Made by a program: the position numbers and the translations under genes. 52,966 nt of DNA from a bacterium (GTDB lineage Bacteria > Krumholzibacteriota > Krumholzibacteriia > G020349025): assembly GCA_031362565.1 (NCBI GenBank), contig JANLSU010000091.1, positions 1 through 52,966 on the forward strand, written 5' to 3'. The notes beneath the pieces are model-generated. The model worked only from the letters and a program-made list of their open reading frames with translations. It made no database searches and was not told the DNA's origin. Positions 32,248-52,966 of this stretch are shown here, one piece after another (within the stretch, counting starts at the first letter, position 1; every line of letters starts with the position of its first letter).

Positions 32248-32259
32248 GATTGCAACACG

Positions 32260-32292
32260 GCGGGGCGGCCTCTCGGCCGCCCCGCATCTTTT
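32260..32292 (+). terminator. intrinsic terminator between the convergent porin and mtrB-like genes
   Basis: GCGGGGCGGCC-tctc-GGCCGCCCCGC is a perfect 11-bp stem, followed by ATCTTTT. Confidence 0.75.
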
Positions 32293-32322
32293 CCCAACCC
32301 TTGTTGCAGTTGCCCGCTTCGC

Positions 32323-37263: not shown

Positions 37264-37728
37264 ATGGTTCACGATTGGTTCCCGAACGGCGCCGCGCACT
37301 ACCTGATTGGCGGCGTGTTGATCGGCGTCGCCGTCAGTTTCGCATTCGCGATGTCGGGCCTCGTCACCGGCATGAGCACGGTTTTCAGCGCCGCGTGGTC
37401 GTACGTTTCGGATCGGTCGTTTTTCCAACAGGCGCGATTCACGACCAGCCGTCAGTGGCGCCTGGCACTCGCTGCGGGCCTCGTACTGGGAGGCTTGTTG
37501 TTCGTGGCCACCGGCGGATCCGCATTTCAAACGCACGTGAGTTGGTGGCAGCTGGCGATCGGTGGATTCATCGCCGGATTCGGCGCCCGCATGAGCAACG
37601 GCTGCACCTCCGGCCATGGGATCTGCGGTCTCGCTTCGTTCCAACTGCCGTCACTCACCGCAGTCGTTACATTCCTGCTGACCGCAATGATTGCGGCGCG
37701 CATCGTCGCGCTGATCGGGGGCACATGA
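37264..37728 (+). CDS. YeeE/YedE-family sulfur-compound transporter subunit
   Basis: GGVLIG, G.VTGMS, GFGARMSNGCTSGHGICGL. Confidence 0.88.
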   Translation: MVHDWFPNGAAHYLIGGVLIGVAVSFAFAMSGLVTGMSTVFSAAWSYVSDRSFFQQARFTTSRQWRLALAAGLVLGGLLFVATGGSAFQTHVSWWQLAIGGFIAGFGARMSNGCTSGHGICGLASFQLPSLTAVVTFLLTAMIAARIVALIGGT

Positions 37729-38159
37729 GCCGGGCGACTCTGGGTGTGGCGCTTGTGAGCGGGATAGGATTCGGCTTCGGCCTCGCGTACTCGACCATGA
37801 CGCGACCCGAAGTCGTACTCGATTTTCTGCGCTGGCGCGATTTTGGGATGTTGCTCGTGCTGGGTGGGGCCGTGGCCGTCACGACACCCACGTATCAGCT
37901 CCTCCCGAGACTGTTGCGGAAGCCGGTGCTCGCCGACTCGTTCGGGAAGCATCACTCGGTCATGAGCCGGCAAACGATCGGCGGGGCCGCGCTGTTCGGG
38001 ATCGGATGGGGCATCGGTGGGGTGTGCCCCGGTCCCGCGATCGCCGGTCTCGGCGCCGGAAATTGGCCGCTCCTCGTCGCGCTCGGCGCCATGCTGTTGG
38101 GCGCGTACGTCCAGGGCTGGATCGCCAGCCGTCGCCGCGTTGCCGCGCCCGATCGCTGA
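37725..38159 (+). CDS. YeeE/YedE-family partner subunit
   Basis: GIGFGFGL..S.M..PEVVLDFL, GAALFGIGWGIGGVCPGP; ATGA overlap with the previous gene. Confidence 0.88.
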   Translation: MSRATLGVALVSGIGFGFGLAYSTMTRPEVVLDFLRWRDFGMLLVLGGAVAVTTPTYQLLPRLLRKPVLADSFGKHHSVMSRQTIGGAALFGIGWGIGGVCPGPAIAGLGAGNWPLLVALGAMLLGAYVQGWIASRRRVAAPDR

Positions 38160-38197
38160 AGCTTAAATCGCCGTACGAATGCCCGGACCCGCGGTAG

Positions 38198-38400
38198 CTA
38201 CCGGTACAAGCCTTTGACACGACCCCAACTCGTGGGCACGACTGCGATCCGCCAATCCGGTAGACCGGTCGCGACCCAGACTTGCGAATACGACGAGTCC
38301 AATCCTGGGTACCTTGCGAACGCGATCGTCTGGCCGTCGGGCGACCAGGCGGGCGATCTGCCTTCCGTGAGCTGCACCGCGGGGCGATGGAGTGCCTTCG
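38198..38400 (-). pseudogene. 3' remnant of a TolB/PD40-repeat secreted protein ending SWGRVKGLYR
   Basis: QLTEGRSPAWSPDGQTIAFAR is one PD40 repeat, followed by the tail motif; no signal peptide or further repeats upstream. Confidence 0.65.
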
Positions 38401-38586
38401 TGACTCCAAAGTGTACTCCTGCAGCCATTCCGTGGTGAACGATTCGTCGCGGGCGGGGAGCGGCAGGCGAGTCACCCACCGGTGCTTTACATGTTCCGGA
38501 CGGCACGGTGAGTGCTCCCTGAGTGCTCAGGATCGGAACCAAGCAGTCGGAGTTCGTCAAACACCGTCCCGCAGTTCCCTCGTCCC

Positions 38587-38615
38587 TTGACTTCGGGTAT
38601 AACCATAGTTATACT
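38587..38615 (+). promoter_or_regulatory. sigma70 promoter with overlapping palindromic operator for the mazEF-like operon
   Basis: TTGACT-N17-TATACT; perfect inverted repeat GTATAAC-cata-GTTATAC at 38597-38614. Confidence 0.85.
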
Positions 38616-38621
38616 AGTGGT

Positions 38622-38858
38622 ATGAAGACCGCCATATCGATCCCGGACCCCGTATTCCGCTCCGCCGAGGCCTTGGCCCGGCGGTTGAAGATTTCGCGCA
38701 GCCACCTCTATGCGAACGCGGTGGCGGAGTTCGTCGCCAAACACCGTCGAAACCAGCTCACCAGGCAATTGAACGACGTGTACTCCGGCACCGAGGGCGG
38801 AATCGACGCCGACTTGCTTTCCCTGCAGCAACGCTCACTCCCGGATGAGGAGTGGTGA
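38622..38858 (+). CDS. ribbon-helix-helix antitoxin (ChpI/MazE-like)
   Basis: MKTAISIPD..F..AEALARRL.ISRS.LY..A..EFV...LT..LN.VY...EW; overlaps the toxin start. Confidence 0.85.
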   Translation: MKTAISIPDPVFRSAEALARRLKISRSHLYANAVAEFVAKHRRNQLTRQLNDVYSGTEGGIDADLLSLQQRSLPDEEW

Positions 38859-39196
38859 TGCTTCGGGGAGACGTTTGGTGGGCAACGCTTCCACAGCCGG
38901 TTGGATCCGGTCCAGGATTTCGACGCCCGGTCGTTCTCGTTCAGTCCGATGCGTTCACGAGAAGCCGCATCCGCACGGTCGTGGTCGTAGTCGTCAGTTC
39001 GAACGCACGCCTGGCGTTGGCTCCGGGAAACGTGCAACTTTCGGCCGAAGTATCGGGGTTACAGCGGGACTCCGTCGCCAACGTGTCGCAAATCATCACG
39101 ATCGACAAGGCGTTCCTTGTCGAACGATGCGGACGCCTTCCCGAATCGATCATCCGTCAGATCGAAGAAGGACTGCGCGTCGTTCTCGCCCTGTGA
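38852..39196 (+). CDS. mazF: PemK/MazF-family endoribonuclease toxin
   Basis: RGDVWWA.L..P.GS.PG.RRPVVLVQSD.F, PGNV.L, SGL..DSVANVSQI.TIDK. Confidence 0.92.
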   Translation: MVMLRGDVWWATLPQPVGSGPGFRRPVVLVQSDAFTRSRIRTVVVVVVSSNARLALAPGNVQLSAEVSGLQRDSVANVSQIITIDKAFLVERCGRLPESIIRQIEEGLRVVLAL

Positions 39197-39409
39197 CGGT
39201 CGCTCTTTCCGCGCAACGACCCGCACTTTCTGGGGAGCGACTTCGACCTGCCGCCGACACGGGCCTCGGAAGTCATCGGTCGTGTAGCGGCGGCTCGGGT
39301 TGGAAAACCGAGGCGGGCTGGCAACGCTCGCCACCACGACCGGGGCGTCGAGTGCCGCGTCAGTTTCATATTGCGAACCTGGCACCACGGCCCTTGCCGC
39401 AGGGTCACG

Positions 39410-39750
39410 CTATCGGACGCGCACCAACTGCCGGCTGGCGGTCAAGCCTCGGGTCTCCAGCCGGTAGAAGTAGATGCCTGGTGCGGTCAGAACGCCTCGA
39501 TCGTCGCGCCCATCCCACGAAGCATCGTGGTGTCCGGCGTCGAGGGTTCGATCGACCACGCGACGAACTCGGCGGCCGGCGGCGTCGTAGATCGTGAGGC
39601 GGGCGGGCGCTCGGGTGCCCAGGTCGAAGGCGATCGCCACGCTTCCGCCTCGGAACGGGTTGGGATGACTCGTGCCGAGCCGACTCCGAAGCACGATCGC
39701 TCCGATCGTTGCCGATACCGGCGCGAAGAACGCGCTCTCCCCTCGTGACT
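39410..39750 (-). pseudogene. orphan C-terminal FlgD-Ig/T9SS-type domain (gene remnant)
   Basis: SHPNPFRG...IAFDL...IYDAAGRRVRRVVD....GHH...WDGRDD.G....PGIYFYRL, with no signal peptide or cargo domain upstream. Confidence 0.7.
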
Positions 39751-39886
39751 GAGCGCGACGGTTCTCTGTGGAGCCTCTGCAACGACCAGGTCGTGCGGTG
39801 GGAGCGCTGCGGCGCGACGGCACGGTGATCCGTAAGGATTCCCCCCAACCTCTGACATGATTGCTGCTGCTGGCGAAGCCCAGAAG

Positions 39887-39970
39887 CAGAAAACGGCCGC
39901 TGGAGCCGACTCCAGCGACCGTTTCGCAAACTGGCTCCGCGGTCCGTACGATTTGCGAACCATTCGATTC
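39887..39970. repeat. cassette-boundary repeat copy A
   Basis: Hairpin AAACGGCCGCTGGAG/CTCCAGCGACCGTTT, then AACTGGCTCCGCGGTCCGTACGATTTGCGAACCATTCGATTC. Confidence 0.85.
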
Positions 39971-40029
39971 ACAATTACGCGCCGGCTCCAGGCCACTTCG
40001 AAGCTCCCGCGCCTCGGCGGCCAGAGTCT

Positions 40030-40506
40030 TCAGGCGAGCCCTTCAGGCGTGCACTCAAGAGCGAGCTCCGACGCGACCTGGGGCTCCGGTGGCGCGGGAA
40101 CTTTGCGGCTCGCGAGGAAGCGCGCGACAACCTCCGGCGGCAGGGCATCGTCGTAGCCCCAGATTCCGGGGCGAATCTCGACCTGGTACTCGGTCAGCGA
40201 GTCGACCGGAATGGTGGGGCTGAGATCAGGGCCAACGATGTCCGTCCCTTCGTCCCAGGGCGCCTGATCCTCGGCCGCCAACTGCAGCGCGTTGCGACGG
40301 TAGCTGCGTTGGGCCCGGGACGAGCCTTTGCGAGGCGCGATGCGCAACTGCCGCCGCTGGATCACCGAGCGCACGAACAGGACTGCCGCGAAGACGATGA
40401 GGATCGACACGTCCGCCTGCCTTTGGGCCACAAACAGCACCGTGAGGACGCCCGCAGTACCCAACAACGCCATCAGCACGAAGTCGGTGAGCAATGCCGT
40501 CCTCAT
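40030..40506 (-). CDS. hypothetical membrane protein (2 TM)
   Basis: GAAGGAG RBS; two hydrophobic segments and a polar tail; main ORF of cassette A-B. Confidence 0.65.
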   Translation of the reverse strand: MRTALLTDFVLMALLGTAGVLTVLFVAQRQADVSILIVFAAVLFVRSVIQRRQLRIAPRKGSSRAQRSYRRNALQLAAEDQAPWDEGTDIVGPDLSPTIPVDSLTEYQVEIRPGIWGYDDALPPEVVARFLASRKVPAPPEPQVASELALECTPEGLA

Positions 40507-40817
40507 GACTACTCCTTCGCTCGGGGTGCTGCCTGGGAGGCATCCGGGAACGTTGCGACCCGTTATTAAGCTAACATTGCTGTGTTAGGGTTCGATTGGG
40601 TCGGTGTGATGCTTCAGTGTCGGGATTTGTGGAATTCCACGCAAATACCCTCGGCCGACCACAGTCGCGCCGTTCTAGCTCGTCATCGTCGCGCAGAAGT
40701 TACTGGACGCCGCTTCTCGTTCTTGGGATCGAGAAGCACCTCGAGGAAGCCGGCTGTATGGTCCTCGAGGCCAGCCGACGCGGTGTAGATCGCCGCATCG
40801 CCGAACTCGTTCTTGAT

Positions 40818-40918
40818 GGTTCGAATCATAAGAAAGGCCCCACAGTCAAATGACTGCAGGGCCTTCGCTTCCGAAACTGGCTCCCCGGTCTGTACGATTT
40901 GCGAACCATCCGGTTCGA
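40818..40918. repeat. cassette-boundary repeat copy B
   Basis: GGTTCGAATC...AAGGCCCCACAGTCA-aa-TGACTGCAGGGCCTT...AACTGGCTCCCCGGTCTGTACGATTTGCGAACCATCCGGTTCGA. Confidence 0.92.
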
Positions 40919-41118
40919 CATCCGGCGGTGACGACTCAGATCACTGCACCGCGCGTAGACATCGGGTGTGAAGACGGTGGACAAGAGCGAAACGGTCTTG
41001 CCACCCCGCCCGCTCCCGCGGTACGTCCAGTAACCCAATCGTGAAATGTGTTCCAGCAGGCACGAGGAGTGCTCGGCGACGACGACGGGCGCGTTGTGAG
41101 CCCCGACGCAAGGCGATC

Positions 41119-41644
41119 ATGACGAAGTCTCAGGAAGCCCTGCCCTCGGATCGGATCCGCCAGTCGATACTGTTGATCCGCGGACAGCGGGTCATGCTCG
41201 ATGTGGACCTGGCTCTGGTTTACGGCGTGACGACGAAGCGCCTGAACGAGCAGGTCACACGCAACCAGGACAGATTCCCGGCAGATTTCATGTTCCGCCT
41301 TACCAGGCAGGAGAAAACAGAGGTGGTCGCAAATTGCGACCACCTCCAAGGCCTCAAATTCTCCAAGGCGCCGCCGCGAGCCTTCACGGAACACGGCGCC
41401 ATCATGCTGGCGGCGGTCTTGAGCAGCCCCGTCGCCATCCATGCCAGCGTGCAAATCGTGCGAGCGTTCGTGCAGCTGCGCGAGATGCTGTCCGGCCATC
41501 GGGATCTTGCCGACAAACTCGCGGTGCTGGAGCGGCGGTACGACCATCAGTTCAAGGTCGTGTTCGACGCTATCCGCGAACTGATGATCCAAGGAGCATG
41601 CTCCGAAGAAGGAGATCGGCTTCAAGGCGTCGGGTCGCCGGTAG
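41119..41644 (+). pseudogene. ORF6N (KilA-N-like) DNA-binding protein with a frameshift near the C-terminus
   Basis: IRGQRVMLD.DLA.VYGVTTKRLNEQV.RN.DRFP.DFMF.LT, P.AFTEHGAIM; the family-typical tail PKKEIGF lies in another frame after ~41587 and ends at TAG 41642-41644. Confidence 0.8.
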
Positions 41645-41694
41645 GTGGTGAGCGGTTGGGAATCGCGCCAGGCGCAAAAAGGCAAGTGCGCAGG

Positions 41695-41797
41695 GGTTCG
41701 AAGCGTACAAAACGGCCCCACAGCCAAGTGGCTGCAGGGCCGTCGCTTACGAAACTGGCTTCCCTGCCCTGTACGATTTGCGAACCGTTCGGTTCGA
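41695..41797. repeat. cassette-boundary repeat copy C
   Basis: GGTTCGAAGCGTACA...ACGGCCCCACAGCCA-ag-TGGCTGCAGGGCCGT...AACTGGCTTCCCTGCCCTGTACGATTTGCGAACCGTTCGGTTCGA. Confidence 0.9.
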
Positions 41798-41995
41798 GGT
41801 GCGTCGCGCCGCACGAAACCCATGAGCGGGTTCCGCTCGCGTGGCCGACGGGGGTACTGGCCCCAAGGCTTGGTTTTCGCTTCGATGCCCGTCTGGACCG
41901 GAGAGGCTGCCTTCCCTTGAAGAATAAATGGGGTATGCAGTGGTCCAAAATACCCCTATCCTTGTTCTCTGTACCCCGTTTCCGGGAGCGCTTTG

Positions 41996-43069
41996 ATGCA
42001 CTCTCTAGATCGTAAGTTCCTATCAAAACTGACCTTTACGCCAGAAGAGGCAGCCACGCTTCGGCAGCTCGGAGAATGCCGCGGGCGACAGGACCTCTTC
42101 AGGAAACAGCGCCCTGAGGTCCTTGAGGGTCTTCGAACGGTTGCCGTTGTTGAGTCGAGCGAATCGTCCAATCGCCTCGAAGGAATCTCTATTCCTCACC
42201 ACCGCTTGGAAAAAATCGTCCTGCATCAGACAGCGCCTCGCAACCGGTCCGAGCAGGAAATCGCCGGCTACCGCGACGCACTAAATCTCATCCATGAATC
42301 GGCCGATGACATGCCCTTCACGGTCGGCGTTGTCCAGCAACTGCATCAGCAGGTTTTTCGTTATCTACCCGGCAGCGCCGGCCAATGGAAGATGAGCGAC
42401 AACGAAATCGTCGAGCGCGACCCGGATGGGTCCGTGCGCGTGCGCTTTCGACCGGTGCCCGCGGTCGCAACCCCGCACCTCATGCGCGAGTTTGTCGAGC
42501 ACTTTGCCAAGGATCAGCAAGACCGAACCATCGACTCGCTTGTCCTCGTACCTTTGGCGATCCTGGACTTCCTCTGTATCCACCCGTTCACAGACGGCAA
42601 CGGCCGTGTCGCGCGGCTGATCACGCTGCTCTTGCTCTATCGCTCCGGCTACGAGGTGGGACGTTACATCAGTTTGGAGCGTATCTTCGAAGAATCCAAG
42701 GAATCGTACTACGAGACCCTGGAGTCGAGCTCTCAGGGATGGCACGAGGGTGCACACGACGCGCACCCGTGGCTCGACTACTTCTGGGGCGTGTTGCTTC
42801 GCGCTCATCGTGAGTTCGAAGATCGCGTCGGACACGTCACAACCGGGCGGGGCGCCAAAACGGCGCAAGTGCGCCGAGCGGTGCGCGCCAAGAATCTCCC
42901 GTTTTCGATATCCGAACTCGAGCGAGATTGCCCGGGTGTCAGTCGCGAACTGATTCGGCGCGTCCTCCGTGAAATGCGAGACGCGGGGGAGATTGAAACC
43001 CAAGGCGCGGGTCGTGGCGCCCGCTGGCGACCTCTTGTTGGTAAGCATCCGGCCTCCCCGCTCGGGTAA
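41996..43069 (+). CDS. Fic family protein with C-terminal winged-HTH-like domain
   Basis: HPFTDGNGRVAR Fic motif; N-terminal SNRLEG inhibitory-type motif; C-terminus FSISELERDCPGVS...G.GRGARW. Confidence 0.92.
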   Translation: MHSLDRKFLSKLTFTPEEAATLRQLGECRGRQDLFRKQRPEVLEGLRTVAVVESSESSNRLEGISIPHHRLEKIVLHQTAPRNRSEQEIAGYRDALNLIHESADDMPFTVGVVQQLHQQVFRYLPGSAGQWKMSDNEIVERDPDGSVRVRFRPVPAVATPHLMREFVEHFAKDQQDRTIDSLVLVPLAILDFLCIHPFTDGNGRVARLITLLLLYRSGYEVGRYISLERIFEESKESYYETLESSSQGWHEGAHDAHPWLDYFWGVLLRAHREFEDRVGHVTTGRGAKTAQVRRAVRAKNLPFSISELERDCPGVSRELIRRVLREMRDAGEIETQGAGRGARWRPLVGKHPASPLG

Positions 43070-43135
43070 ATCTGTGCGAACCGGCTCCCGCGCCGGTATG
43101 GCACGCGCCTGATCGAGGCGTCCGAGGAGAGCGCC

Positions 43136-43224
43136 GGTTCGAATCATGAAAAAAGCCCCGCAGCCAACTGACTGCAGGGCTTTCACTTAGAAACTGGCTC
43201 CCCGTGGCCGACGCTATTCGAACT
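43136..43224. repeat. cassette-boundary repeat copy D (variant right arm)
   Basis: GGTTCGAATC...AAAGCCCCGCAGCCA-ac-TGACTGCAGGGCTTT...AACTGGCTCCCCGTGGCCGACGCTATTCGAACT. Confidence 0.88.
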
Positions 43225-43345
43225 ATAGTGGCAGACGCAGACTGGTGGAACGGGCGACGGCGGGCGGTTCTGCGGGGAATCGCGTTGTTGGGATGACTGC
43301 ATGGGAACTGCTTTGGGCCCCCAGAGCGGGCGACAGCGCGCGCCA

Positions 43346-45745
43346 TCAACGTGCCAAATGCGTCCGCAGATACCGTCGGTACAGCTCGCAACTGAAATCG
43401 ATCTTGTTGTCGCCGCTCTGGAAGACCACGCCGGCCGCGAGGAGCCGGTGGAACCCGTCCGCGTCCTTGAGCTGCGGGCTCTCGAGCGAGGCCCGCAGCG
43501 CGTCCATGACCTCGGGCATCTGTGAGACCGACACGAGAATCCGCTTGAGATGGTCGCCGAACGGTCCCTCATCCTGGTCGGCCTGCGCGAGCAAAGCCGG
43601 AAAATCCATCACGCCGCGTTTGACGACGTCGAGCGCCCGCCGGGTGAGAAACGGCTGGCCCGCGATCAAGGCACGCAACGCCTGCACTTCGCCCGGCGAA
43701 ACGAGTGGCGCCCCGTACCGGCGGTTCAATTCCTCCATCTGATTCAGATCAAAACCCTGCAGCTGCAAGTGCCGCCCGACGTTGAACGGTGATTGATTCA
43801 GGTCTCGAATGAATAGATGCGCCTCGGTCGCGTAGCTGATCACGACAGTGAATAGGCTCCACGGCCCCTGCGGCTCGGTGGCCCGCGCGTTGTGCCAGGA
43901 GCGGACGAGCCCGAAGAAGTCGCTGGCGAACGGCGTGCCGAACAGCTTGTCTGCCTCGTCCATGAACCACACGAGCGGCTTGGGCGAGGCCTCGATCAGG
44001 GCGCGAATGGCGTTGTCGAGATTGATGCCCGGCCCGAAGACGTCGAGCCACTCGTTCGCGAAGTCGTACGTGGTCCCGAGTTGGCGCGCCATCGTCGCCG
44101 CGAGCAACTTGTAGAACTGATCCTCCGAGGCAAGCTGCGAAGAGCCGATCTTCTGGAAGTCCGTGCTCGCGTGGCGCAGCCCCAGCTCGCGCCCGAGCTG
44201 CGCGCCGCGCCCGAGGAGCGACGTCTTGCCGATCTGGCGTGGCCCCTTGATGAGGATGATGCTTTCGCCGGCCTTGAGCGCATCGAGGAACTCCGCGTCG
44301 ACGCGCCGCTCCATGTAGAACGGCGATCCGGGCGGCACCGCGCCGCCAACCGGTTCCAGCACCACGTCCGCCGACTTCTGCTTCAGCGGTTCGGTGAGCG
44401 CGGTGACGACTTCTTCGACCACGCGCGCGTCGTCGTTCGGTTCCTGCCAGAGGCAGTAGTTGAGCTGCTGAAGGATCGCCCCAGCGGCCCCTCCGAGTGG
44501 TTTGTCCGAGCCAATCCGCACCGGCAGGATCCGCGGCTTGCCCTTGGTGCGCGACTCGTCGCCGGCGGTCTCCAGTTCATATTCCAGCATCTCGCTGCCG
44601 GCGGCCGAATCCGACAGCAGCGGGATGACGGCATCCGCGGACCGGATGCGCTCTTCGATCGCCTTGGCCCATTCGACGCCGATCTTGAGATGCCGATCGA
44701 TGAACACGTCGTGGCCCATCGCCACGAGGCGCTCCTCCAAGAGACGCATCAGCTGCTCGTCCGGCTGCGCTTTCCGCTTGTAGAGCAGCACGATGGAGAG
44801 CGGTTTCACGGCCGCGGCAATCGGCCTCGCGGCTGCAATCGGCGCACTACCGGATGGTGCGGGGCGGTCGTGGCCGTCCAGCTGCTGTTTGAGGCTCCGC
44901 AGATCCACTTGAAAGTCCAGGACGCTCTGGTAGCGCTCGTCACGCCTCTTGCGCAACGTCTTCGCCACGATGCGTTCCAGTTCCGCGGGCAGATCGGGCC
45001 GGACGCGGACGAGGGGCGGCGGCTCGTGTTCGAGGATCGCGACGATCACGTGACTGTTTGTCTCGCCGGCAAACGGCGCCGTCCCCGCGATCATCTCGTA
45101 GAGCACGACTCCCAGACTGAAGATGTCCGAGCGCGCATCGACCGGCGCGCCGCGCGCCTGCTCGGGCGACATGTAGCCGCATGTGCCCAGCACGGTGCCG
45201 AAGTCGGTGTTGACGCCAAGCGCGGTCTCGGCTGCGGCGTCCGCGTCGGGAGCCGATGCTTCGGTCAGTTTCGCCAAACCGAAGTCCAGGACCTTGACCA
45301 GGCCGTCGGCCCGCACCATCACGTTCTCGGGCTTGATGTCCCGATGGACGATGCCGGCGTGGTGCGCTTCGACGAGCGCACTCGCGATCTGAATCCACAC
45401 GTCGAGCATCTCGCCGAGACTCATGCGCTGGCGTGCGAGGCGGGTGCGCAGTGTCTCGCCGTCGATGAACTCGGTGGCGATATAGTGCCGGTCGCCCGCC
45501 TGGCCAATCTCGTAGATCGTGAGGATCGTCGGATGGTTGAGCGCCGAGGCGGCGCGCGCTTCCTGTTGAAAACGGCGCACGCGGTCTTCGCTTTTGGTGA
45601 ATTCGTCGGACAGCAGCTTCAGCGCGACCTTGCGGCCGAGTTTCGTGTCTTCGGCGAGATACACCTCGCCCATGCCGCCGGCGCCAATCGCGGCAAGGAT
45701 GCGATAGTGAGCGATGGTCGTACCGGGCGAGAGCGACGTCTTCAT
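43346..45745 (-). CDS. Ser/Thr kinase-TIR-AAA_35 (STAND-like NTPase) fusion protein
   Basis: GAGGMGEVY, VALK, HRDIKPEN, DFG, YMSPE; TIR-like segment DVFIDRHLKIGVEW...ADAVIPLLS....SEMLEYE; GGAVP..SPFY.ER, Walker A GPRQIGKTS, FMDEAD, QSPFNVG. Confidence 0.88.
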   Translation of the reverse strand: MKTSLSPGTTIAHYRILAAIGAGGMGEVYLAEDTKLGRKVALKLLSDEFTKSEDRVRRFQQEARAASALNHPTILTIYEIGQAGDRHYIATEFIDGETLRTRLARQRMSLGEMLDVWIQIASALVEAHHAGIVHRDIKPENVMVRADGLVKVLDFGLAKLTEASAPDADAAAETALGVNTDFGTVLGTCGYMSPEQARGAPVDARSDIFSLGVVLYEMIAGTAPFAGETNSHVIVAILEHEPPPLVRVRPDLPAELERIVAKTLRKRRDERYQSVLDFQVDLRSLKQQLDGHDRPAPSGSAPIAAARPIAAAVKPLSIVLLYKRKAQPDEQLMRLLEERLVAMGHDVFIDRHLKIGVEWAKAIEERIRSADAVIPLLSDSAAGSEMLEYELETAGDESRTKGKPRILPVRIGSDKPLGGAAGAILQQLNYCLWQEPNDDARVVEEVVTALTEPLKQKSADVVLEPVGGAVPPGSPFYMERRVDAEFLDALKAGESIILIKGPRQIGKTSLLGRGAQLGRELGLRHASTDFQKIGSSQLASEDQFYKLLAATMARQLGTTYDFANEWLDVFGPGINLDNAIRALIEASPKPLVWFMDEADKLFGTPFASDFFGLVRSWHNARATEPQGPWSLFTVVISYATEAHLFIRDLNQSPFNVGRHLQLQGFDLNQMEELNRRYGAPLVSPGEVQALRALIAGQPFLTRRALDVVKRGVMDFPALLAQADQDEGPFGDHLKRILVSVSQMPEVMDALRASLESPQLKDADGFHRLLAAGVVFQSGDNKIDFSCELYRRYLRTHLAR

Positions 45746-47462
45746 TTGACTCCAGCGTTCTGCGGCGCCTTCGTCAGCGGCGCCTTCGTCAGCCACATCA
45801 TGGCATTGCCGCGCCCGTCGATGCTGACGATCGATTCGCCGTTGGCCGTGAATCGCGCCCGGGAGACCGTCTCGCGGTGGCCCACAAGCGACGTCAGTTC
45901 CCGAAACGTAGCCGCGTCCCAGACCCGGACGGTCCGGTCACCCGAGGCCGTGACAATGCGGCGGCCGTCGGGCGCGAAGGCCGCATCCCCGACAAATTGC
46001 GAGTGCCCGACCAGTTTCCCCAGCAGGCGGCCTGCGATCACGTCCCAGACCTCGGCGTTGTCGTTGGAGGTGCTCGCAACGAGCCGAGTGCCGTCCGGCG
46101 AGAACATCACATTGTTCAGGCCGCCACCGATCCGCGGGAAGGCACGCGCTGCCCATGTCGTGGTATCCCAGACCCAGAGCTCGTTGCCCCACAGACCGGC
46201 CGCCAGCCATCGGCCGTCCGGTGAGACCTTCGCAGTCCCTATATTCTGCGGTGTTTGCAACTTTTTGACGACGCGCCTCTCACCGGTATCCCAGATTTCA
46301 GACGTCTTGTCCGCGAAATACAGAATGGCGTGCCGCTTGTCGGGGAATTGCCGGAAGCCGTTGGGTACCCTTTCGTTCGCCGGAAGCGTCATGACGGATT
46401 CGTGCGTGTCGAAATCCACGACGTCTAGCCGGCCGGCGGCGCGCTTGACGATCCCCCAGCTCTCGCCGCTCTCGGGGTTGACCAACGGCACCCCGGCGAA
46501 CCAGCCGATCCGGCGTGATTCGCCACGGAGTGGATCGCGCTCGAACGCCGTGCTCCCACACCTTACGCGGGCGATGGCGTTCCCTGTGAGCACCGCCGTC
46601 GCGTCCGCCCATTCTGACCCGCCCAGCGCCGTCGGCGTTTCGACGTAGGACGCCGGATCGTAAATGCGGAGCGTGGTGTAGCTGGCGGCGACGCGTGTCT
46701 TGTCCGGTGAGATCGACAGAAGGCCGGCATCGGGAAACGTCTGTAGAAGTCTCGGTTCCGGCCCCTGAAGGTCGTAGAGACGGCCCAGACGGTCCCAACA
46801 CGAGGCGGCCAGCCACATCCCGTCTGCGGAGAACTGGAGATGGTACACCTGCAGATCGGCCACCTGGGCGCGGCTGATTTCCTTCCGTGCGCGCAGGTCC
46901 CACAACTGGACCCACCCGGTCATCGTGCTCGTCGCGAGCCGCTCGCCATCAGGTTGTAGCACTCGCGAATGCCGGCGAAAAATTCGTTGGCGCTGAACGA
47001 CAAGCTGCGCGTCGCGTCGATTTCATCGACGAAAATGACGATCTGCGAGTCGACCTTCTCGAGCGCCACGTCGCGCAAAGCGGAGAAGAAGCGCTGCATC
47101 GGGCTGAGCGCCTGTTCCTCCTGCCAGTTGCGCAGCATCTCGGCGCGCAGGCCGAGGGCGCGGCCGACTTCGACGACGAGGCCCGCGTACCACTGGTCCG
47201 GTGTGACGTTGCGGCCACCGATCTTCGTCAGATCGACAAAGGCCGTGCGCGCGCCTGCCGCCTGCAACCGCGCCATCGTGCGCACGCAGAGCGACGATTT
47301 ACCCATCTGCCGCGAGTTGAGGACGTAGCAGAACCGGCCGCCGGACAGGGCCTCGAAGAGCGCCGCGTCGGCGCCGCGCTCGACGTAGCTCGGCGAGTCG
47401 AGTGGGACAGTGCCCCCGGAGACAAAAAATCCTTCCGCACCGGCGGTGGCGGCGCCTTGCAA
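45742..47462 (-). pseudogene. AAA_35-WD40 protein with an out-of-frame internal deletion
   Basis: The 5' part (GGTVP..SPSYVER.AD, SRQMGKSS, IFVDEID, FFAGIRECYN) runs at ~46952 directly into WD40 repeats in another frame (PDGERLAT...LWD, GHSQFV..AAFAPDGRRIVTASGDRTVRVWD). Confidence 0.8.
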
Positions 47463-47801
47463 GCGGAACCCCTCTCAAAGTGCGGAAACCAAACGGTGTC
47501 TGCACGACACAGCATAGCGTGTGGCGAGGTTCGGCGACAACAGGCATGCCTCGCGTGTGTCGAGCGCCGTCGCATGGGCCCCGGCGAACCCCGCGCTTCG
47601 CTGCGATCGCTCCGTTCCGTTTCCATTGATCCGGCCGACCGGCCGGATGCGCTGAGCTGGCGCTGGGCGCCACCCCATTGCCGGGCAAGACTCGAAGCGT
47701 TCTACTACCTTCCCTGGCGGCGATCACCGCGGCGTGCGGATCGACGAATCCACACCCGCACCCCGAGCGCGATTCTCAACTGGAATGGCGGACTCGAACA
47801 C

Positions 47802-50438
47802 GTGACGATCAACGCGGGGACGATGCTCGGGCACTACCGGATCGCTTCGGCGATCGGCGCGGGCGGCATGGGCGAGGTGTACGCGGCGCGAGACACCAAG
47901 CTGAACCGAGACGTCGCGATCAAGGTACTCCCCGAAACCGTGGCCCGGGATTCGGAGCGCCTGGGGCGGTTCCGGCGCGAGGCGCAGGTGCTCGCTTCGC
48001 TCAACCATCCGAATATCGCCGCGATCTATGGACTGGAAGAGTCCGGTGACATCCACGCGCTGGTGATGGAGCTCGTCGAAGGGCCCACCCTCGCGGGTCG
48101 TATCGCTGCGGGGCCGATCCCTCTCGACGAAGCGCTGATGATCGCCAAGCAGATCGCGGACGCGCTCGAGGTCGCGCACGAGCGTGGCATCATTCACCGC
48201 GATCTCAAGCCCGCAAATGTGATGGTGACCGACGACGACAAGGTCAAAGTGCTCGACTTCGGCCTCGCCAAGGTGTTGACCGGCGAGAGCGACCTCGACG
48301 ACCTCTCGCACTCCCCCACGGTGATCGAAGCCACGCAAGCCGGAGTGCTTCTGGGCACGGCCGCCTACATGAGTCCCGAGCAAGCACGCGGCCGGGCGGT
48401 GGACAAACGCACGGACCTCTGGGCATTCGGCGTCGTGCTGATGGAAATGCTGACGGGCAGGCGCCTCTTCACCGGCGACACCGCCACCGATGTGATCGCC
48501 GCAGTGCTGACACAGCAAGTGGATTGGACGGCGCTGCCGGACGCGACACCCGCGCCAATTCGCCGCCTGCTGCGCCGGTGCCTCGAAAAGGACCACAAGC
48601 GCCGGCTGGCCCACGCGGCGGCGGCGAAGTTCGAGATCGACGATGCGCTCGCCGGTGTAGGCGATGGCCTGGCGATCGAAAGTCCAACTCGATCCGCGCC
48701 CTCCTCGCGTCGGACGGCGTTGCGTGTCGTACTGCCCGTCGTGTTGCTCACGGCGGTTGTTGCCGGCCTCTCGGGACGGGCTCTCCAGCGACGCGGACCC
48801 AGCATCGCGCCTCGCGAGCTCATGCTGACAATCGTGCCGCCCGACAGTGTTCGTCTGCGACCGGTCGGAACGATGAATTCGCCGCCGCACATTTCGCCGG
48901 ATGGGTCTGCCGTCTTGTTTCTGAACGGCACCGATCACTCTCTGTACGTGCGCCGCCTCGATTCACCCGACCTCCTGCGGGTGCCCGGTTCGGACGTGGT
49001 CCGGAACGAACCGTTCTGGCGCGGCTCGGCCGCTGTCACATTTCCCTATCTGCAGCAGCAGCTTCTCAGCGTCCGCCTTCCGGACGGTGCGCCAGAAACG
49101 GTGATGCCACTCGATGCATTCTCCCGCAGTGGCAGTTGGAGCGATGCCGGTACACTGTTGCTTTCGGCGCTCAATCACCTCGTGACGCGCCACCCGGATG
49201 GCACGACCGCAACGGTCGCGATTCCCGGCGACCGAACCGGTGACCTCGTGTATCCACAATTCCTGCCGGGAGGCGAAGATTTTCTGGCGCTGTTCAAGCC
49301 CGAGGGCAGCGACGGTGAAGCGTGGCTTGCGACGCTGAACAAGGATACGGTCACGAGGCCAACCGTTCTCTTCAAGAACGACACCGCGGCCAGCTACACG
49401 TCGTGGGATGGTGGGCGTGTGCTGTTCGTCAAGAACGATAACCTGTACTCGCAACACCTGAACAGGTCCGCTCGCGCGGTCGAGGGCTCGCCCGAGCTCG
49501 TTGTGCGAGGCGTCGCCTCGCAGCCAGGCCTGCAACGGGCCGACTTTTCAGTCGCCGAAAACGGGACGGTCGCTTGGCGCCCGGGTCGCGCCGCACTCTC
49601 CCAAGTGATGGTCTTTGATCGCCGCGGTGTGGTCGTGGGTCCCGCCGGCCCCGCGGGCCCGATCGAAACCGTCGCTGTTTCGCCCGTTGACGACTCGCGC
49701 CTGCTAGTTCTAGGGCCGGATGCATGGCTGGTCGACGTCGGCCAAAACGGCCGCGTCCTCCTCCCGGGTGACGTGGAGTGGTGGAATTGGTCACCCGACG
49801 GCGGCAAGGTGTTGGGTTTGCGCGGGGAGAACCGGCTCGTCGCGCGACCCGCCGACAGCGTGGGTGGCGTCGACTCCGCCGGCCAGTTCCCGTCAGGCTC
49901 GTGGCATCCCAAAGCCATTTCACCCGACGGGAAATTCATTCTGGCGCGCCAACTCTCGGGAGCCGCAAGCTGGGCTCGCCTTTCCGGCATCGACGCGGCA
50001 GGCTCATGGACGCCACTCGCTGGATCCGACGAGTCGCTCGCCGACCTCGGCTTTTCGCCGGATGGCCAGTTCGTTCTCTACGATGTGTATGCGTCCGGGC
50101 GCGGCATTTACGTCCAACCGTTTCCAGGTCCGGGCCGGCGCCAGCTTGTCGACCAAGATGGGATCGATCCGGTGTGGCGCGGCGATGGGAAGGAGATCCT
50201 GTTCACGCGCGGTGCGGCCGTGTGGTCGGTCGCGGTCACGCGCTCGGGCAGCTCGCTGGCGTTCGGCAGCCCGCAGCGATTGTTCGAAGGAGTGCGCCGC
50301 GCACCCAGTGGCGTCAATCAGAGCAGCGGCCTTGCCGTGTCGCACGACGGTACGCACATCTTCCTGGTGCAGGGCGTCGAGCAGCCGGAAGCGAATCTCA
50401 TTCACGTGATGATGCGAGTCGCGAAGCACCAACGATGA
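47802..50438 (+). CDS. Ser/Thr protein kinase with TM segment and TolB/PD40-like propeller
   Basis: GAGGMGEVY, VAIK, HRDLKPAN, DFG, YMSPEQ; hydrophobic segment; repeated SPDG motifs; P.WRGDGKE; start at GTG 47802. Confidence 0.9.
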   Translation: MTINAGTMLGHYRIASAIGAGGMGEVYAARDTKLNRDVAIKVLPETVARDSERLGRFRREAQVLASLNHPNIAAIYGLEESGDIHALVMELVEGPTLAGRIAAGPIPLDEALMIAKQIADALEVAHERGIIHRDLKPANVMVTDDDKVKVLDFGLAKVLTGESDLDDLSHSPTVIEATQAGVLLGTAAYMSPEQARGRAVDKRTDLWAFGVVLMEMLTGRRLFTGDTATDVIAAVLTQQVDWTALPDATPAPIRRLLRRCLEKDHKRRLAHAAAAKFEIDDALAGVGDGLAIESPTRSAPSSRRTALRVVLPVVLLTAVVAGLSGRALQRRGPSIAPRELMLTIVPPDSVRLRPVGTMNSPPHISPDGSAVLFLNGTDHSLYVRRLDSPDLLRVPGSDVVRNEPFWRGSAAVTFPYLQQQLLSVRLPDGAPETVMPLDAFSRSGSWSDAGTLLLSALNHLVTRHPDGTTATVAIPGDRTGDLVYPQFLPGGEDFLALFKPEGSDGEAWLATLNKDTVTRPTVLFKNDTAASYTSWDGGRVLFVKNDNLYSQHLNRSARAVEGSPELVVRGVASQPGLQRADFSVAENGTVAWRPGRAALSQVMVFDRRGVVVGPAGPAGPIETVAVSPVDDSRLLVLGPDAWLVDVGQNGRVLLPGDVEWWNWSPDGGKVLGLRGENRLVARPADSVGGVDSAGQFPSGSWHPKAISPDGKFILARQLSGAASWARLSGIDAAGSWTPLAGSDESLADLGFSPDGQFVLYDVYASGRGIYVQPFPGPGRRQLVDQDGIDPVWRGDGKEILFTRGAAVWSVAVTRSGSSLAFGSPQRLFEGVRRAPSGVNQSSGLAVSHDGTHIFLVQGVEQPEANLIHVMMRVAKHQR

Positions 50439-50888
50439 TCACCGCCGGGCATCGGATGCCGGATCGGGAGCGTCACAGAGCCCTCGTCACTGACTAGCGT
50501 TGCCGTCGTACCAAATGGAAGCGCGCGCTACGCGGGATCGGCATCGTCGCGGCACATCTCGACGCGGGCGCACAACGGTTCGAGGAGCGCGTTGCAAAAC
50601 TTCCTCCCGCTGTGCTCGATTCTCTTGATGCAGGCATCACCGATCTGCTGCGCAAGCGGGATCGTGGGCGCGGACACACCGGCGCCGATGACAAAGAAGA
50701 AGGGTGACTCGGACCCATGCGGCGTTCATTGTCTCGGCGAGGGCTTCATCCAGTGATAGCAAGTTCGTTGGCATGGTGACCGGCCCCAGCTCAGTTCAAC
50801 GGCCTCGGACTCAGCCGGCGCAGGGAATAGAACGACGCGAACCTCCACGGATCTTTGCGCGGTGAGATCTTACAGCGGTAAGCACGAT

Positions 50889-50974
50889 GCAGAAAAGGCC
50901 GCCGGAGTTGCCTCCAACGGCCTTTCCGCGAACTGGCTCCCCGGTCTGTACGATTTGCGAACCATTCGCTTCGA
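50889..50974. repeat. cassette-boundary repeat copy E
   Basis: AAAGGCCGCCGGAG-ttgc-CTCCAACGGCCTTT...AACTGGCTCCCCGGTCTGTACGATTTGCGAACCATTCGCTTCGAG. Confidence 0.9.
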
Positions 50975-51247
50975 GCTACCACGACTCGGACCGCGTCGCG
51001 ACCGCCCTACCGGCCTGGGTGAAACGACCCAGATGACCTGCGATGGCTCGCGTCGCTTGCCTCGCGCCAGCCCGAGGCGGTGGTGACTTCGGTCGACCAG
51101 AACCGGCCGATCTCTGCTTTTTTTCTTCGTACCCATGGTTTGTTGAGTGCCAATTGCCGATACTTGCGCCCGCATGATCTACGTGCGCTGATGGGAAGTC
51201 GTGCCTGCGTCCCGCGAAGAACTCGTGGGCTTGAGAAGGAACACCTC

Positions 51248-51961
51248 TTGAACAATCACAAGTTAGGATTTCAACGGTCGCTTACGGCGCTGGGTCATCC
51301 GGAATTACAGCGCGCACACCGGACCTGTTCATCGCTCCTTGCTGTGGGAGCCATGGCTTGGGTTGCCTTCTCTCTTGCCGTGGTCGCGCCTGCCAATGCT
51401 ACCAGCGGGGTGGCCAGCTTTTCGGGTGGCGTGGCCACAACCGCGGGACAGCGGTACGGCGGTCTCGCAAACACGACGATTGGCTGGAGCTTCACGGTGG
51501 GAGCCCAAAACATCACCGTGTCAGCCCTCGGGTTCTTCGATCAGGATGGGGACGGGCTCAATACGGCGCACGAGGTTGCGATTTGGACCACCGCGGGTTC
51601 ACTGTTGGGCTCTGAGACGGTTCAATCAGGAACCGCGAGTAACCTCGTGAACGGATTTCGGTTCGAGCCCTTGGGCAGCGCGCTTGTGCTTCTAGCCGGT
51701 CAATCGTACGTCGTCGGCAGCCACATCACGCTCAGCTCATCCGACGTGTTCTGGGCCGGGACAACCGCGACGTATGCCCCGGAGATCACCTATGGCACGG
51801 GCCGTGACATTGAGCAGCCATTTAACCAAGGATTCGCGTTTCCGTCTCGGACGCGAGGCGACATCACCGGTGGTTTCTTTGGCCCGAATTTCCAACTCGA
51901 CGGTTCTGTCGTCGGCGTAGAGTCCGACACGTGGGGCGCCGTTAAACACCTCTATCGCTAG
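51248..51961 (+). CDS. secreted DUF4082-like beta-sandwich protein ending TWGAVKHLYR; start uncertain
   Basis: Signal peptide ending APANA; TIGWSFTV...ITVSALGFFD..GDGL..AHEVAIW...G.LL...NGFRF...FGPNF; GAAGGA before TTG 51248. Confidence 0.75.
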   Translation: MNNHKLGFQRSLTALGHPELQRAHRTCSSLLAVGAMAWVAFSLAVVAPANATSGVASFSGGVATTAGQRYGGLANTTIGWSFTVGAQNITVSALGFFDQDGDGLNTAHEVAIWTTAGSLLGSETVQSGTASNLVNGFRFEPLGSALVLLAGQSYVVGSHITLSSSDVFWAGTTATYAPEITYGTGRDIEQPFNQGFAFPSRTRGDITGGFFGPNFQLDGSVVGVESDTWGAVKHLYR

Positions 51962-51993
51962 AGAGAAGCCGACCTGGAATGTCCCGTGTTTAA

Positions 51994-52035
51994 GCCTCCC
52001 TCCGCTCCCGGGTGGGGGGAGGCCTTCGCCTTTTT
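51994..52035 (+). terminator. probable intrinsic terminator
   Basis: GCCTCCCTCCGCT/GGTGGGGGGAGGC stem (G-U pairs on the + strand), then CTTCGCCTTTTT. Confidence 0.55.
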
Positions 52036-52109
52036 GAACACCGGAGTCGGAGATTATGTGACCGCGGTGGAGCGGGTGACCGGCTGGGTTGTCGCCAGGC
52101 AGTGCCGAT

Positions 52110-52210
52110 GGTTCGAAACGTACAGAAAGGCCCTGCAGCCAACTGGCTACAGGGCCTTCGCTTGGAAACTGGCTCCCCGGTCTGTACGATTTGCGAACCG
52201 TGCGGTTCGA
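52110..52210. repeat. cassette-boundary repeat copy F
   Basis: GGTTCGAAACGTACAGAAAGGCCCTGCAGCCA-ac-TGGCTACAGGGCCTT...AACTGGCTCCCCGGTCTGTACGATTTGCGAACCGTGCGGTTCGA. Confidence 0.92.
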
Positions 52211-52252
52211 GCTTCTACGGGCTGGCCCACGCCCTGCCGTCGCTTCGTTCTG

Positions 52253-52291
52253 ATAACAAAGATTGACAAATTTTGCTATTCAGGGTAGGCT
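52253..52291 (+). promoter_or_regulatory. sigma70 promoter and operator of the parDE-like operon
   Basis: TTGACA(52263)-N17-TAGGCT(52286); imperfect inverted repeat ATAACAAA...TTTGCTAT around the -35. Confidence 0.75.
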
Positions 52292-52297
52292 TCCCGT

Positions 52298-52564
52298 ATG
52301 AACGTCTCGCTCACTCCAGAACTCGAAGACTTCGTGAAGCGCCTGCTCGCCTCGGGGCTTTATACGTCCGCAAGTGAGGTTGTCCGCGACGGGCTGAGGC
52401 TGCTTGCCGAGCGCGAGGTGTTGAAGGAAACCCGCCTCGGGGAACTCCGGAAGCAAATTGCACACGGCCTCGCCGAAGCCCACGCCGGCAAGCTCAAAGA
52501 TGGCGAGGAAGTTCTGCGAGAAGCGGTACGAGCAATTCGCAAACGCAGTAGGAAGAGGGCGTGA
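52298..52564 (+). CDS. parD: ParD-family antitoxin
   Basis: MNVSLTPELEDFV...LASGLYTSASEVVRDGLRLL...LR..I..G. Confidence 0.92.
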   Translation: MNVSLTPELEDFVKRLLASGLYTSASEVVRDGLRLLAEREVLKETRLGELRKQIAHGLAEAHAGKLKDGEEVLREAVRAIRKRSRKRA

Positions 52565-52854
52565 CCCCCTACGTCGTCACCGAGCTCGCCGAGTCCGACC
52601 TCATCGAAATCGCTTCGTACATCGCCGAAGATAACCTTGCGGCTGCGGAACGCGTCCTCGCTGACTTCAAGGCGGCCTTCGAAAAACTCGCTCAAATGCC
52701 CGAGATGGGACATCTCCGCCTCGACCTCGCCGACGAGGAACTACGGTTCTGGTCCGTCCATTCCTACCTGATCATCTACCGCCCGGAGACCAAACCTCTT
52801 CAAGTCGTTCGCGTCCTGAGTGGCTACCGAGACATTCCGGAGCTGCTGCGCTAA
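52561..52854 (+). CDS. parE: RelE/ParE-family toxin
   Basis: AESDL.EI..YIAEDN..AA...LA..PEMGH.R.DL...YLI.YR.....V.RVL.G.RDI; GTGA overlap with parD. Confidence 0.92.
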   Translation: MTPYVVTELAESDLIEIASYIAEDNLAAAERVLADFKAAFEKLAQMPEMGHLRLDLADEELRFWSVHSYLIIYRPETKPLQVVRVLSGYRDIPELLR

Positions 52855-52892
52855 GCACGCCGTTGCTGGAAGCGTCTCGATGAGAGAGTGCC

Positions 52893-52966
52893 GGTTCGAA
52901 TCACAAGAAAGGCCCCACAGCCAAGTGACTGCAGGGCCTTCGCTCACGAAACTGGCTCCCCGTGGT
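52893..52966. repeat. cassette-boundary repeat copy G (cut by the window end)
   Basis: GGTTCGAATC...AAGGCCCCACAGCCA-ag-TGACTGCAGGGCCTT...AACTGGCTCCCCGTGGT. Confidence 0.9.

Follow-up and report, generated by a model that had tools for sequence, protein, structure and literature searches.

The right end of a 52,966-nucleotide contig of a Krumholzibacteriota genome (JANLSU010000091.1 of assembly GCA_031362565.1; the whole contig, C34 in our numbering, is called the window below) carries seven direct copies of a repeat which delimit six gene-bearing units. We found that this repeat is not an attC site but an attachment-site junction, in which the 3' end of the transfer RNA (tRNA) gene tRNA-Asn is set beside a conserved arm. 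The array was probably produced by the tandem accretion, at tRNA-Asn, of elements of a large serine recombinase (LSR) type and of mini-units deprived of any recombinase gene. A preliminary description of the same DNA, made from its letters alone, had proposed an integron-like cassette array delimited by a structured repeat other than attC, that is, a distinct gene-capture platform in which a trans-acting recombinase stacks small cassettes at one site. Below, G000 is the source genome (5.4 Mb in 133 contigs, 65% G+C), the other G numbers are comparison genomes and the L numbers are loci.

Seven copies of one repeat

Searching the window for the core AACTGGCTYC gave exactly seven occurrences, all of them on the forward strand (39929, 40875, 41753, 43192, 50931, 52167 and 52950) and spaced by 946, 878, 1439, 7739, 1236 and 783 bp from core to core; the copies, positions and unit sizes of the preliminary description are reproduced exactly. 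Dinucleotide-preserving shuffles contain 0.12 core copies on average and not one of 100 reaches seven. The repeat is about 95-115 nt long, well beyond its 10-nt core, and the extents of the copies (A to G, Table 1) were set with an nhmmer profile built from the seven copies. Both the core search and this profile agree with the earlier claim that the first 38 kb of the window is free of the repeat. Run against the whole of G000, a genome-wide scan which the preliminary description had proposed, the profile matches the seven copies, the tRNA-Asn locus (E 7e-7) and two weak copies on contig C75, and nothing else. Since the matches are confined to these places, the repeat is not, in this genome, a scattered element of the repetitive extragenic palindromic (REP) kind or a miniature inverted-repeat transposable element (MITE). 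The cores of copies B, E and F are identical over 28-29 nt; copy C and both C75 copies are degenerate. The element has terminal inverted repeats of about 17-20 nt in G000.

The repeat contains the 3' end of tRNA-Asn

On the minus strand, the repeat is made of three parts. The first is a conserved arm of about 25 nt (GGTTCGCAAATCGTACAGACCGGGG), in place of which copies D and G carry a second arm type, called D-type below. The second overlaps the 3' end of tRNA-Asn (GGAGCCAGTT), AGCCAGTT and the bases before it being the 3' acceptor end of this tRNA. The third is a flank with an intrinsic-terminator hairpin and a T-run, as after the real tRNA-Asn. The real tRNA-Asn(GTT) gene lies on contig C128 (C128:37282-37357), and it is the 3' end and flank of this gene that are matched by the minus-strand CCGGGGAGCCA with its terminator. 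On C128, this 3' end and terminator are almost identical to copies E and A, the latter having no left GGTTCGAA box. The other five copies carry a different terminator type (type 1 in Table 1) and then a GGTTCGAA box; the same arrangement follows the real tRNA-Asn in the relatives G001 and G029, where the box reads GGTTCG. The tRNA-Asn 3' end and its flank thus make up two-thirds of the repeat, on its left, and only the arm of about 25 nt is foreign to the tRNA. All seven copies set the tRNA-Asn 3' end beside a conserved non-tRNA arm. We concluded that the repeat is an attachment-site junction and not an attC site.

In such a junction, strand exchange would have to fall inside GGAGCCAGTT. The comparison of attL with attR in two genomes having LSR islands (G086 and G171, see below) confines the crossover to GGAGCCA(G/A)TT. 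The motif CGAACC starts 17 nt past TGGCTCC in the repeat arm and 12 nt past it in the real tRNA (reverse strand, T-loop). According to Rutherford et al. (PMC3783163), serine integrases have their zinc-ribbon-domain motif at positions 16-24 of the attP half-site, and the attB motif lies 5 bp nearer to the centre. The 5-bp displacement of CGAACC agrees with this attP/attB rule in one half-site, the one on the tRNA side; the symmetry of the other is only weak. The repeat arm may thus be a P-type half-site and the T-arm of the tRNA the matching B-type half-site, a proposal which concerns one half-site only.

The tRNA-Asn locus

The place of the array is given by G001, a genome of the same family. 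Its DNA upstream of tRNA-Asn matches C128 at 31857-33936 and the tRNA itself matches C128, while the DNA downstream of the tRNA matches C34 at 41340-41209 (a remnant of an ORF6N gene, 132 nt, 88% identity) and then at 39186-38585 (72%). Since this synteny spans both contigs, a single locus has C128 on one side and the reverse of C34 on the other. In particular, the flank of repeat C and the ORF6N gene next to it are matched by the DNA immediately downstream of the real tRNA-Asn of G001. The stacking at one chromosomal site that had been described earlier is borne out by this synteny, which places the array at the tRNA-Asn locus. A comparison between strains had also been proposed, and the content does vary: the G001 locus, nearly empty, holds just tRNA-Asn, its terminator and the ORF6N remnant, where G000 holds the array. 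On balance, we take the array of the window to be the distal part of a tRNA-Asn integration hotspot.

The ends of C128 and C34 do not overlap, and no other place in the assembly contains the last 15-55 nt of C34. In the likely source run, the public contigs are interrupted at cores B, E, F and G. Run X3 has two joints of low depth, about 2.6x (38978 to 52166; 50974 to 39032), which have 90% likeness and possibly come from other organisms; they were not used as evidence.

A large serine recombinase abuts tRNA-Asn

On C128, the tRNA-Asn gene is abutted by a convergent gene (37316-38893, minus strand) encoding an LSR of 525 amino acids with Resolvase, Recombinase and Zn_ribbon_recom domains. After it come an XRE-type regulator, a DnaB/AAA_25 helicase and the contig end; no second small serine recombinase was seen beside this LSR. 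Homologues are present in 21 of the 208 genomes of the class. At 16 loci, the tRNA neighbouring the homologue is tRNA-Asn (nine), tRNA-Glu (two) or tRNA-His/Arg (two), and three loci have none. Distant homologues (27-49% identity; L092, L099, L100 and L102) abut tRNA-Glu or a tRNA-His/tRNA-Arg pair. This suggests that the LSR family switched tRNA targets.

Four LSR islands could be traced on long contigs. The far end bears the arm beside a copy of the tRNA 3' end in three of them (Table 1); in the fourth, that of G087, the arm was not found within 20 kb. The arm of the G171 island is D-type and the LSR of G171 is the closest homologue of the C128 LSR (48% identity), and these two facts make repeat G a good candidate far junction for the island of C128.

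A proposed tandem accretion at tRNA-Asn

The six units of the window measure 0.8-7.7 kb, five of them 0.8-1.4 kb with a single gene or a toxin-antitoxin pair. Each unit has its own copy of the tRNA terminator flank, and the orientation of the cargo is mixed. In unit D-E, the two ends are of the C128/G171 type: the flank at E is C128-like and the arm at D is D-type. Pfam found no recombinase or transposase domain in the 25 open reading frames (ORFs) scanned around the array, and tblastn with the LSR found no remnant of it in the array, unit D-E included; the units are without a recombinase, as had been stated before.

We propose that elements of the LSR family inserted successively at the 3' end of tRNA-Asn, each bringing a terminator-bearing flank. 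The newest insertion would adjoin the tRNA and displace the older ones outward, and the element encoded right after the tRNA-Asn of C128 would probably be the newest. The six units of the window, which keep both element ends without a recombinase, would be derivatives or satellites, comparable to cis-mobilizable elements, and their movement, if any, would need the LSR in trans. The earlier idea of a trans-acting recombinase stacking cassettes can be kept in part: the units are stacked, and the LSR of C128, which lies outside them, is a credible agent, but we infer its role in moving the mini-units, as we infer the order of insertion and any present mobility of these units.

The core in other genomes

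The pattern of the arm occurs in 13 of the 208 genomes of the class, the control giving none. With one genome taken per species, an exact IUPAC scan located the 24-nt core at 24 loci, distributed over Acidobacteriota, Krumholzibacteriota, Latescibacterota, Zixibacteriota, Verrucomicrobiales, one gammaproteobacterium and three low-GC complete genomes. There is a five-copy array in G202, and there are two copies with a tRNA remnant in G198. In two loci of Latescibacterota (L037, G202:C1 9900-13150; L038, G201:C1 10200-11260), the site is a long dyad, made of TCTGGAC GATT TGCGAAC, about 22 nt, and GTTCGCA AAAAC GTACGGT. This dyad is sometimes directly followed by a second left half, which gives one-and-a-half sites 70 nt apart.

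The low-GC genomes G208, G209 and G210 (L064-L072, L082-L085, L130-L132) contain 69, 51 and 32 dispersed cores (reversed-pattern control 0). These cores are always intergenic, co-oriented with genes and inside a conserved element of about 130 nt, for which RNAalifold gives no consensus fold (35 copies, both strands) and Rfam no match. Only these three genomes, out of the 41 searched around G208, have the core; since the 38 neighbours lack it, we are dealing with a lineage-specific expansion and not with an old regulatory motif. Some of the cargo falls into a family of more than 20 paralogues. Two cassettes of about 1.7-2.7 kb, with about 90% identity, occur in opposite order in G209 and G210, the breakpoints being at cores and the neighbours being different; homologous recombination between the repeats of about 130 nt could also cause such swaps. 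No LSR homologue was found in G202, G198 or G208-G210 at E <= 1e-10, nor any match to the Recombinase domain in G208-G210. In G208, three members of one family of Xer-like tyrosine recombinases lie 1-2.5 kb from core clusters.

It is possible, although we find it rather doubtful, that a site of about 45 bp mimicking the tRNA-Asn 3' end defines a cassette system of integron scale, independent of integrons and spread over several phyla. A unit of this system would consist of its own terminator or promoter, a gene and the site, and it is at the site that insertion, excision and reshuffling of units would take place. The enzymes would be LSRs in some lineages, and an Xer-like tyrosine recombinase or an unknown enzyme acting in trans in others. 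In favour of such a system, we count the swapped order between G209 and G210, the presence of the core in 3 of 41 genomes with 32-69 copies each, and the mini-arrays without a nearby recombinase.

Points against accretion and rival explanations

Several points weigh against the tandem accretion of LSR-type elements and mini-units. C128 and C34 are physically unjoined, and the LSR island ending at repeat G is a candidate only. A search of the 208 genomes of the class showed none of the cassettes in another context, the 13-kb array giving only matches of about 70% to the kinase and Fic domains. Tandem stacking would require the recombination of attP with attL, which canonical serine integrases do not perform, and both sides of the junctions of the array look attP-like. 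G000 has a single LSR of this family, which groups with the islands bearing the D-type arm, while five of the seven arms of the array are of the main type; since this sole LSR is associated with the D-type, the main-type units have no cognate enzyme in the assembly. Last, the arrays of G202 and G198, which have the same core, and the 32-69 copies of G208-G210 exist without any LSR homologue.

The array might be a fossil, that is, the decayed remains of seven full-size LSR islands whose interiors were deleted, without any mobility of cassettes. Full-size islands with the same ends do exist (4.8 kb in G086, 4.7 kb in G177 and 39 kb in G171), the ORF6N gene is frameshifted and only its 132-nt remnant is found in G001, copy C is degenerate like the C75 copies, and no cassette has a second context in the class. 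However, all six units keep both ends and lose every recombination gene, whereas random deletion would often take an end, and five units are trimmed to one gene or one toxin-antitoxin pair. Moreover, the identity of the B, E and F cores over 28-29 nt suggests recent activity or selection, and similar mini-arrays are found in G202 and G198. We consider the fossil unlikely.

The repeat could also be a selfish or regulatory intergenic element (like a MITE or a REP, or a promoter-terminator module), the array resulting from homologous recombination between its copies. The dispersed intergenic cores of G208-G210 (69, 51 and 32, inside the element of about 130 nt), the fact that these genomes are without LSR and the terminal inverted repeats of about 17-20 nt in G000 would fit such an element. 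It is nevertheless very unlikely: the copies of G000 are confined to the tRNA-Asn locus and one other tRNA-linked island, the repeat contains the tRNA 3' end with its flank and sits at the far end of LSR islands, neither a consensus fold nor an Rfam family was found, and 38 of the 41 genomes around G208 are without the core.

As for integrons, a rough scan for RYYYAAC/GTTRRRY pairs found no canonical attC in C34 and no cluster of them anywhere in G000, and the GTT/AAC boxes of the repeat, judged by eye, face outward and not inward. The preliminary description was right in saying that the repeat is not attC: the scan is empty and the canonical attC sites of G086 look different. No tyrosine recombinase domain was found in the 25 ORFs around the array. 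G000 does encode an integron integrase, intI, on another contig (C130:96081-97358, L045 1294-2571; TIGR02249, 449.6 bits for a cut-off of 265), 250 nt from the contig end, and the tail of C130 beyond it carries GTTAGAC and GTTAGGC boxes. Because of these boxes, G000 probably has a canonical integron, with an unassembled array and with integrase and cassettes co-directional. In G086, a genome of the same class, a canonical integron is seen at L060 (G086:C2, 11504-19400): the integrase is followed by at least 10 attC sites (GTCTAAC...GTTAGGC) on the same strand, 550-1290 bp apart.

The least credible explanation is that a tyrosine recombinase and not an LSR acts on the core, be it an Xer-like or tRNA-targeting integrase or the integron integrase of C130: the three Xer-like integrases 1-2.5 kb from core clusters in G208, the bona fide integron integrase of G000 and the Xer-like 11-6-11 spacing of family f1 (core, then a 6-nt spacer and an inverted GTTCGA) would fit, but G000 has no close homologue of the G208 Xer-like integrase (best 24% identity, E 1.8e-6), the second arm is unconserved outside family f1, and the canonical attC sites of G086 are unlike the repeat, the C130 tail having GTTAGAC/GTTAGGC boxes and the rough attC scan of C34 being empty. 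In Xer-dependent modules of the dif or pdif kind, a 28-bp site related to the dif of the host has two conserved arms about a 6-bp spacer; here, the copies of family f1 are the only ones with 11-6-11 spacing, and a dif consensus used as query found no dif-like site in G000.

Relation to known tandem systems

With tandem accretion at tRNA-Asn, which we prefer, the architecture of the array is a variant of known tandem serine-recombinase islands, and its integron-like outcome is obtained with a different, known machinery. The claim of a distinct gene-capture platform is not supported: the site is the tRNA-Asn 3' end with its flank and the architecture matches that of the ssrA islands of Dehalococcoides. 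According to McMurdie et al. (2011, PMC3146451), these islands stand in tandem downstream of a tRNA-like gene, with a 20-bp direct repeat of the 3' end of this gene and, beside it, a conserved 15-bp motif that cannot be aligned to it. Next to attL, the reverse strand encodes a CcrB-like serine recombinase of about 540 amino acids, 15 islands without an integration module are interpreted as cis-mobilizable, the insertion point is inferred to be in the region from the T-loop to the 3' end, and the islands are compared with the staphylococcal cassette chromosome, SCC (PMC3146451). Our array resembles them by the direct repeats of the target 3' end, the adjacent arm foreign to the target, the reverse-strand LSR by attL and the units without integration genes. 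It differs from them by its target, tRNA-Asn, by the fact that no second small serine recombinase is seen beside the LSR, by the integron-cassette size of five of its six units (0.8-1.4 kb), by the tRNA terminator flank of each unit and by an arm conserved across several phyla.

SCC and SCCmec elements, found at the staphylococcal rlmH gene, use large serine recombinases, and their insertion at the 3' end of this conserved gene regenerates a usable site. In SCC composite islands, tandem elements lie between repeated integration-site sequences and some units depend on a recombinase in trans. These systems have CcrA with CcrB, or CcrC, units of kilobases to tens of kilobases, and no tRNA mimicry. 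Tandem stacking, LSRs and recombinase-less units are common to SCC and to our array; the target gene and the unit size differ. With integron arrays and clusters of attC sites lacking an integrase (CALINs), the array has in common ordered small units without recombinase, each ending in a conserved site, and a cargo of toxin-antitoxin pairs and small unknown genes; in the proposed model, the newest unit would also stand beside the primary site, as in integrons. Unlike integrons, it has no R''/R' or L''/L' boxes, its site includes a tRNA 3' end, its cargo has mixed orientations and it is linked to a serine recombinase in place of IntI. In streptococci, integrative and conjugative elements (ICEs), integrative and mobilizable elements (IMEs) and cis-mobilizable elements (CIMEs) accrete in tandem and site-specifically at tRNA genes, some of them keeping att sites without integrase or transfer genes. 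They mostly use tyrosine integrases and conjugative helpers, neither of which was seen here.

If tandem accretion is the right explanation, serine-recombinase elements build ordered stacks of single genes at a tRNA gene in uncultured bacteria of the FCB group, and an integron-like outcome is reached via a different chemistry. A concrete pair of recombinase and site would be available, in which attB would be the T-loop and acceptor end of the tRNA and attP would, to judge from the letters, mimic it with a 5-bp shift; such pairs serve genome engineering. tRNA-Asn would be flagged as a hotspot accumulating defence-like and toxin-antitoxin cargo. A wider cassette system may be indicated by the core, which is nearly identical in distant phyla and has expanded in one lineage lacking the enzyme.

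Cargo of the units

The features of the array are collected in Table 1. Pfam agrees with the cargo that had been listed in the preliminary description (membrane protein, ORF6N, Fic, secreted protein, parDE). The frame of the ORF6N gene is broken near 41590-41600, its natural end being the TAG at 41641-41643 in another frame (protein end ...PKKEIGFKASGRR); this is either a pseudogene or an assembly error. In the 7.7-kb unit D-E (genes 43346-50438), the set formed by the kinase-TIR-AAA_35 fusion, the WD40 protein and the kinase resembles an anti-phage or STAND-type defence module.

Table 1. Repeats, cargo and flank of the array in the window, and LSR islands of comparison genomes
Feature	Position or length	Strand	Description
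Chromosomal flank of array	38585..39186	-	syntenic, 72% identity, with DNA downstream of G001 tRNA-Asn
Repeat A	39887..39981	-	copy furthest from the tRNA; main-type arm, tRNA-Asn 3' end, type-2 terminator flank as at C128 tRNA-Asn
Unit A-B cargo	40030..40506	-	membrane protein of 158 amino acids, two hydrophobic N-terminal helices, no Pfam family
Repeat B	40816..40928	-	main-type arm, tRNA-Asn 3' end, type-1 terminator, GGTTCGAA box
Unit B-C cargo	41041..41643	+	ORF6N-domain gene (PF10543, 3.6e-28)
Repeat C	41695..41806	-	built like B, with 1-nt indels
Unit C-D cargo	41993..43069	+	Fic/DOC-family protein (PF02661, 2.9e-13)
Repeat D	43134..43229	-	second arm type (D-type), resembling far end of 39-kb LSR island in G171
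Unit D-E cargo	43346..45796	-	Ser/Thr kinase-TIR-AAA_35 fusion (Pfam), defence-like look
Unit D-E cargo	45742..46962	-	WD40 repeat protein (Pfam)
Unit D-E cargo	46887..50438	+	Ser/Thr kinase of 1183 amino acids (Pfam)
Repeat E	50887..50983	-	main-type arm; terminator flank nearly identical to that after C128 tRNA-Asn
Unit E-F cargo	51080..51961	+	DUF4082 protein, C-terminus ...DTWGAVKHLYR; true start probably later than 51080
Repeat F	52108..52220	-	main-type arm; inverted copy of the arm in the left box clearer than in the other repeats
Unit F-G cargo	52298..52854	+	ParD antitoxin (52298-52564) and ParE toxin (52561-52854)
Repeat G	52891..52966	-	truncated at contig end (profile match 52891-52965); beginning of D-type arm
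LSR island G086	4.8 kb		arm at far end
LSR island G177	4.7 kb		arm at far end
LSR island G171	39 kb		D-type arm at far end

Other readings of the repeat and the C75 islet

Three other identities of the repeat were considered and dropped. A tRNA or structured RNA found no support: ARAGORN detects no tRNA in the window, Rfam gives no match at the gathering score in the window and none at E <= 1 in four related loci, and RNAalifold is empty for the 35 low-GC copies on both strands. A coding core (...WLPGLYDLRT...) was abandoned, as the L042 variant has an in-frame stop and the variable positions do not regularly fall on third positions of codons. Promoters were sought in sigma-70-like boxes of the terminator loop and in an ECF-like -35/-10 pair, the spacing of which is wrong or inconsistent in the copies of G000.

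Finally we must note that degenerate arms of the repeat also occur on C75 (C75:1-3400, L088), near 1150-1190 and 3158-3200. There, a tRNA-Arg(TCT) gene at 148-224 and a partial copy of it, which runs from its anticodon loop onward and starts near 3367, bracket an islet of about 3.2 kb.

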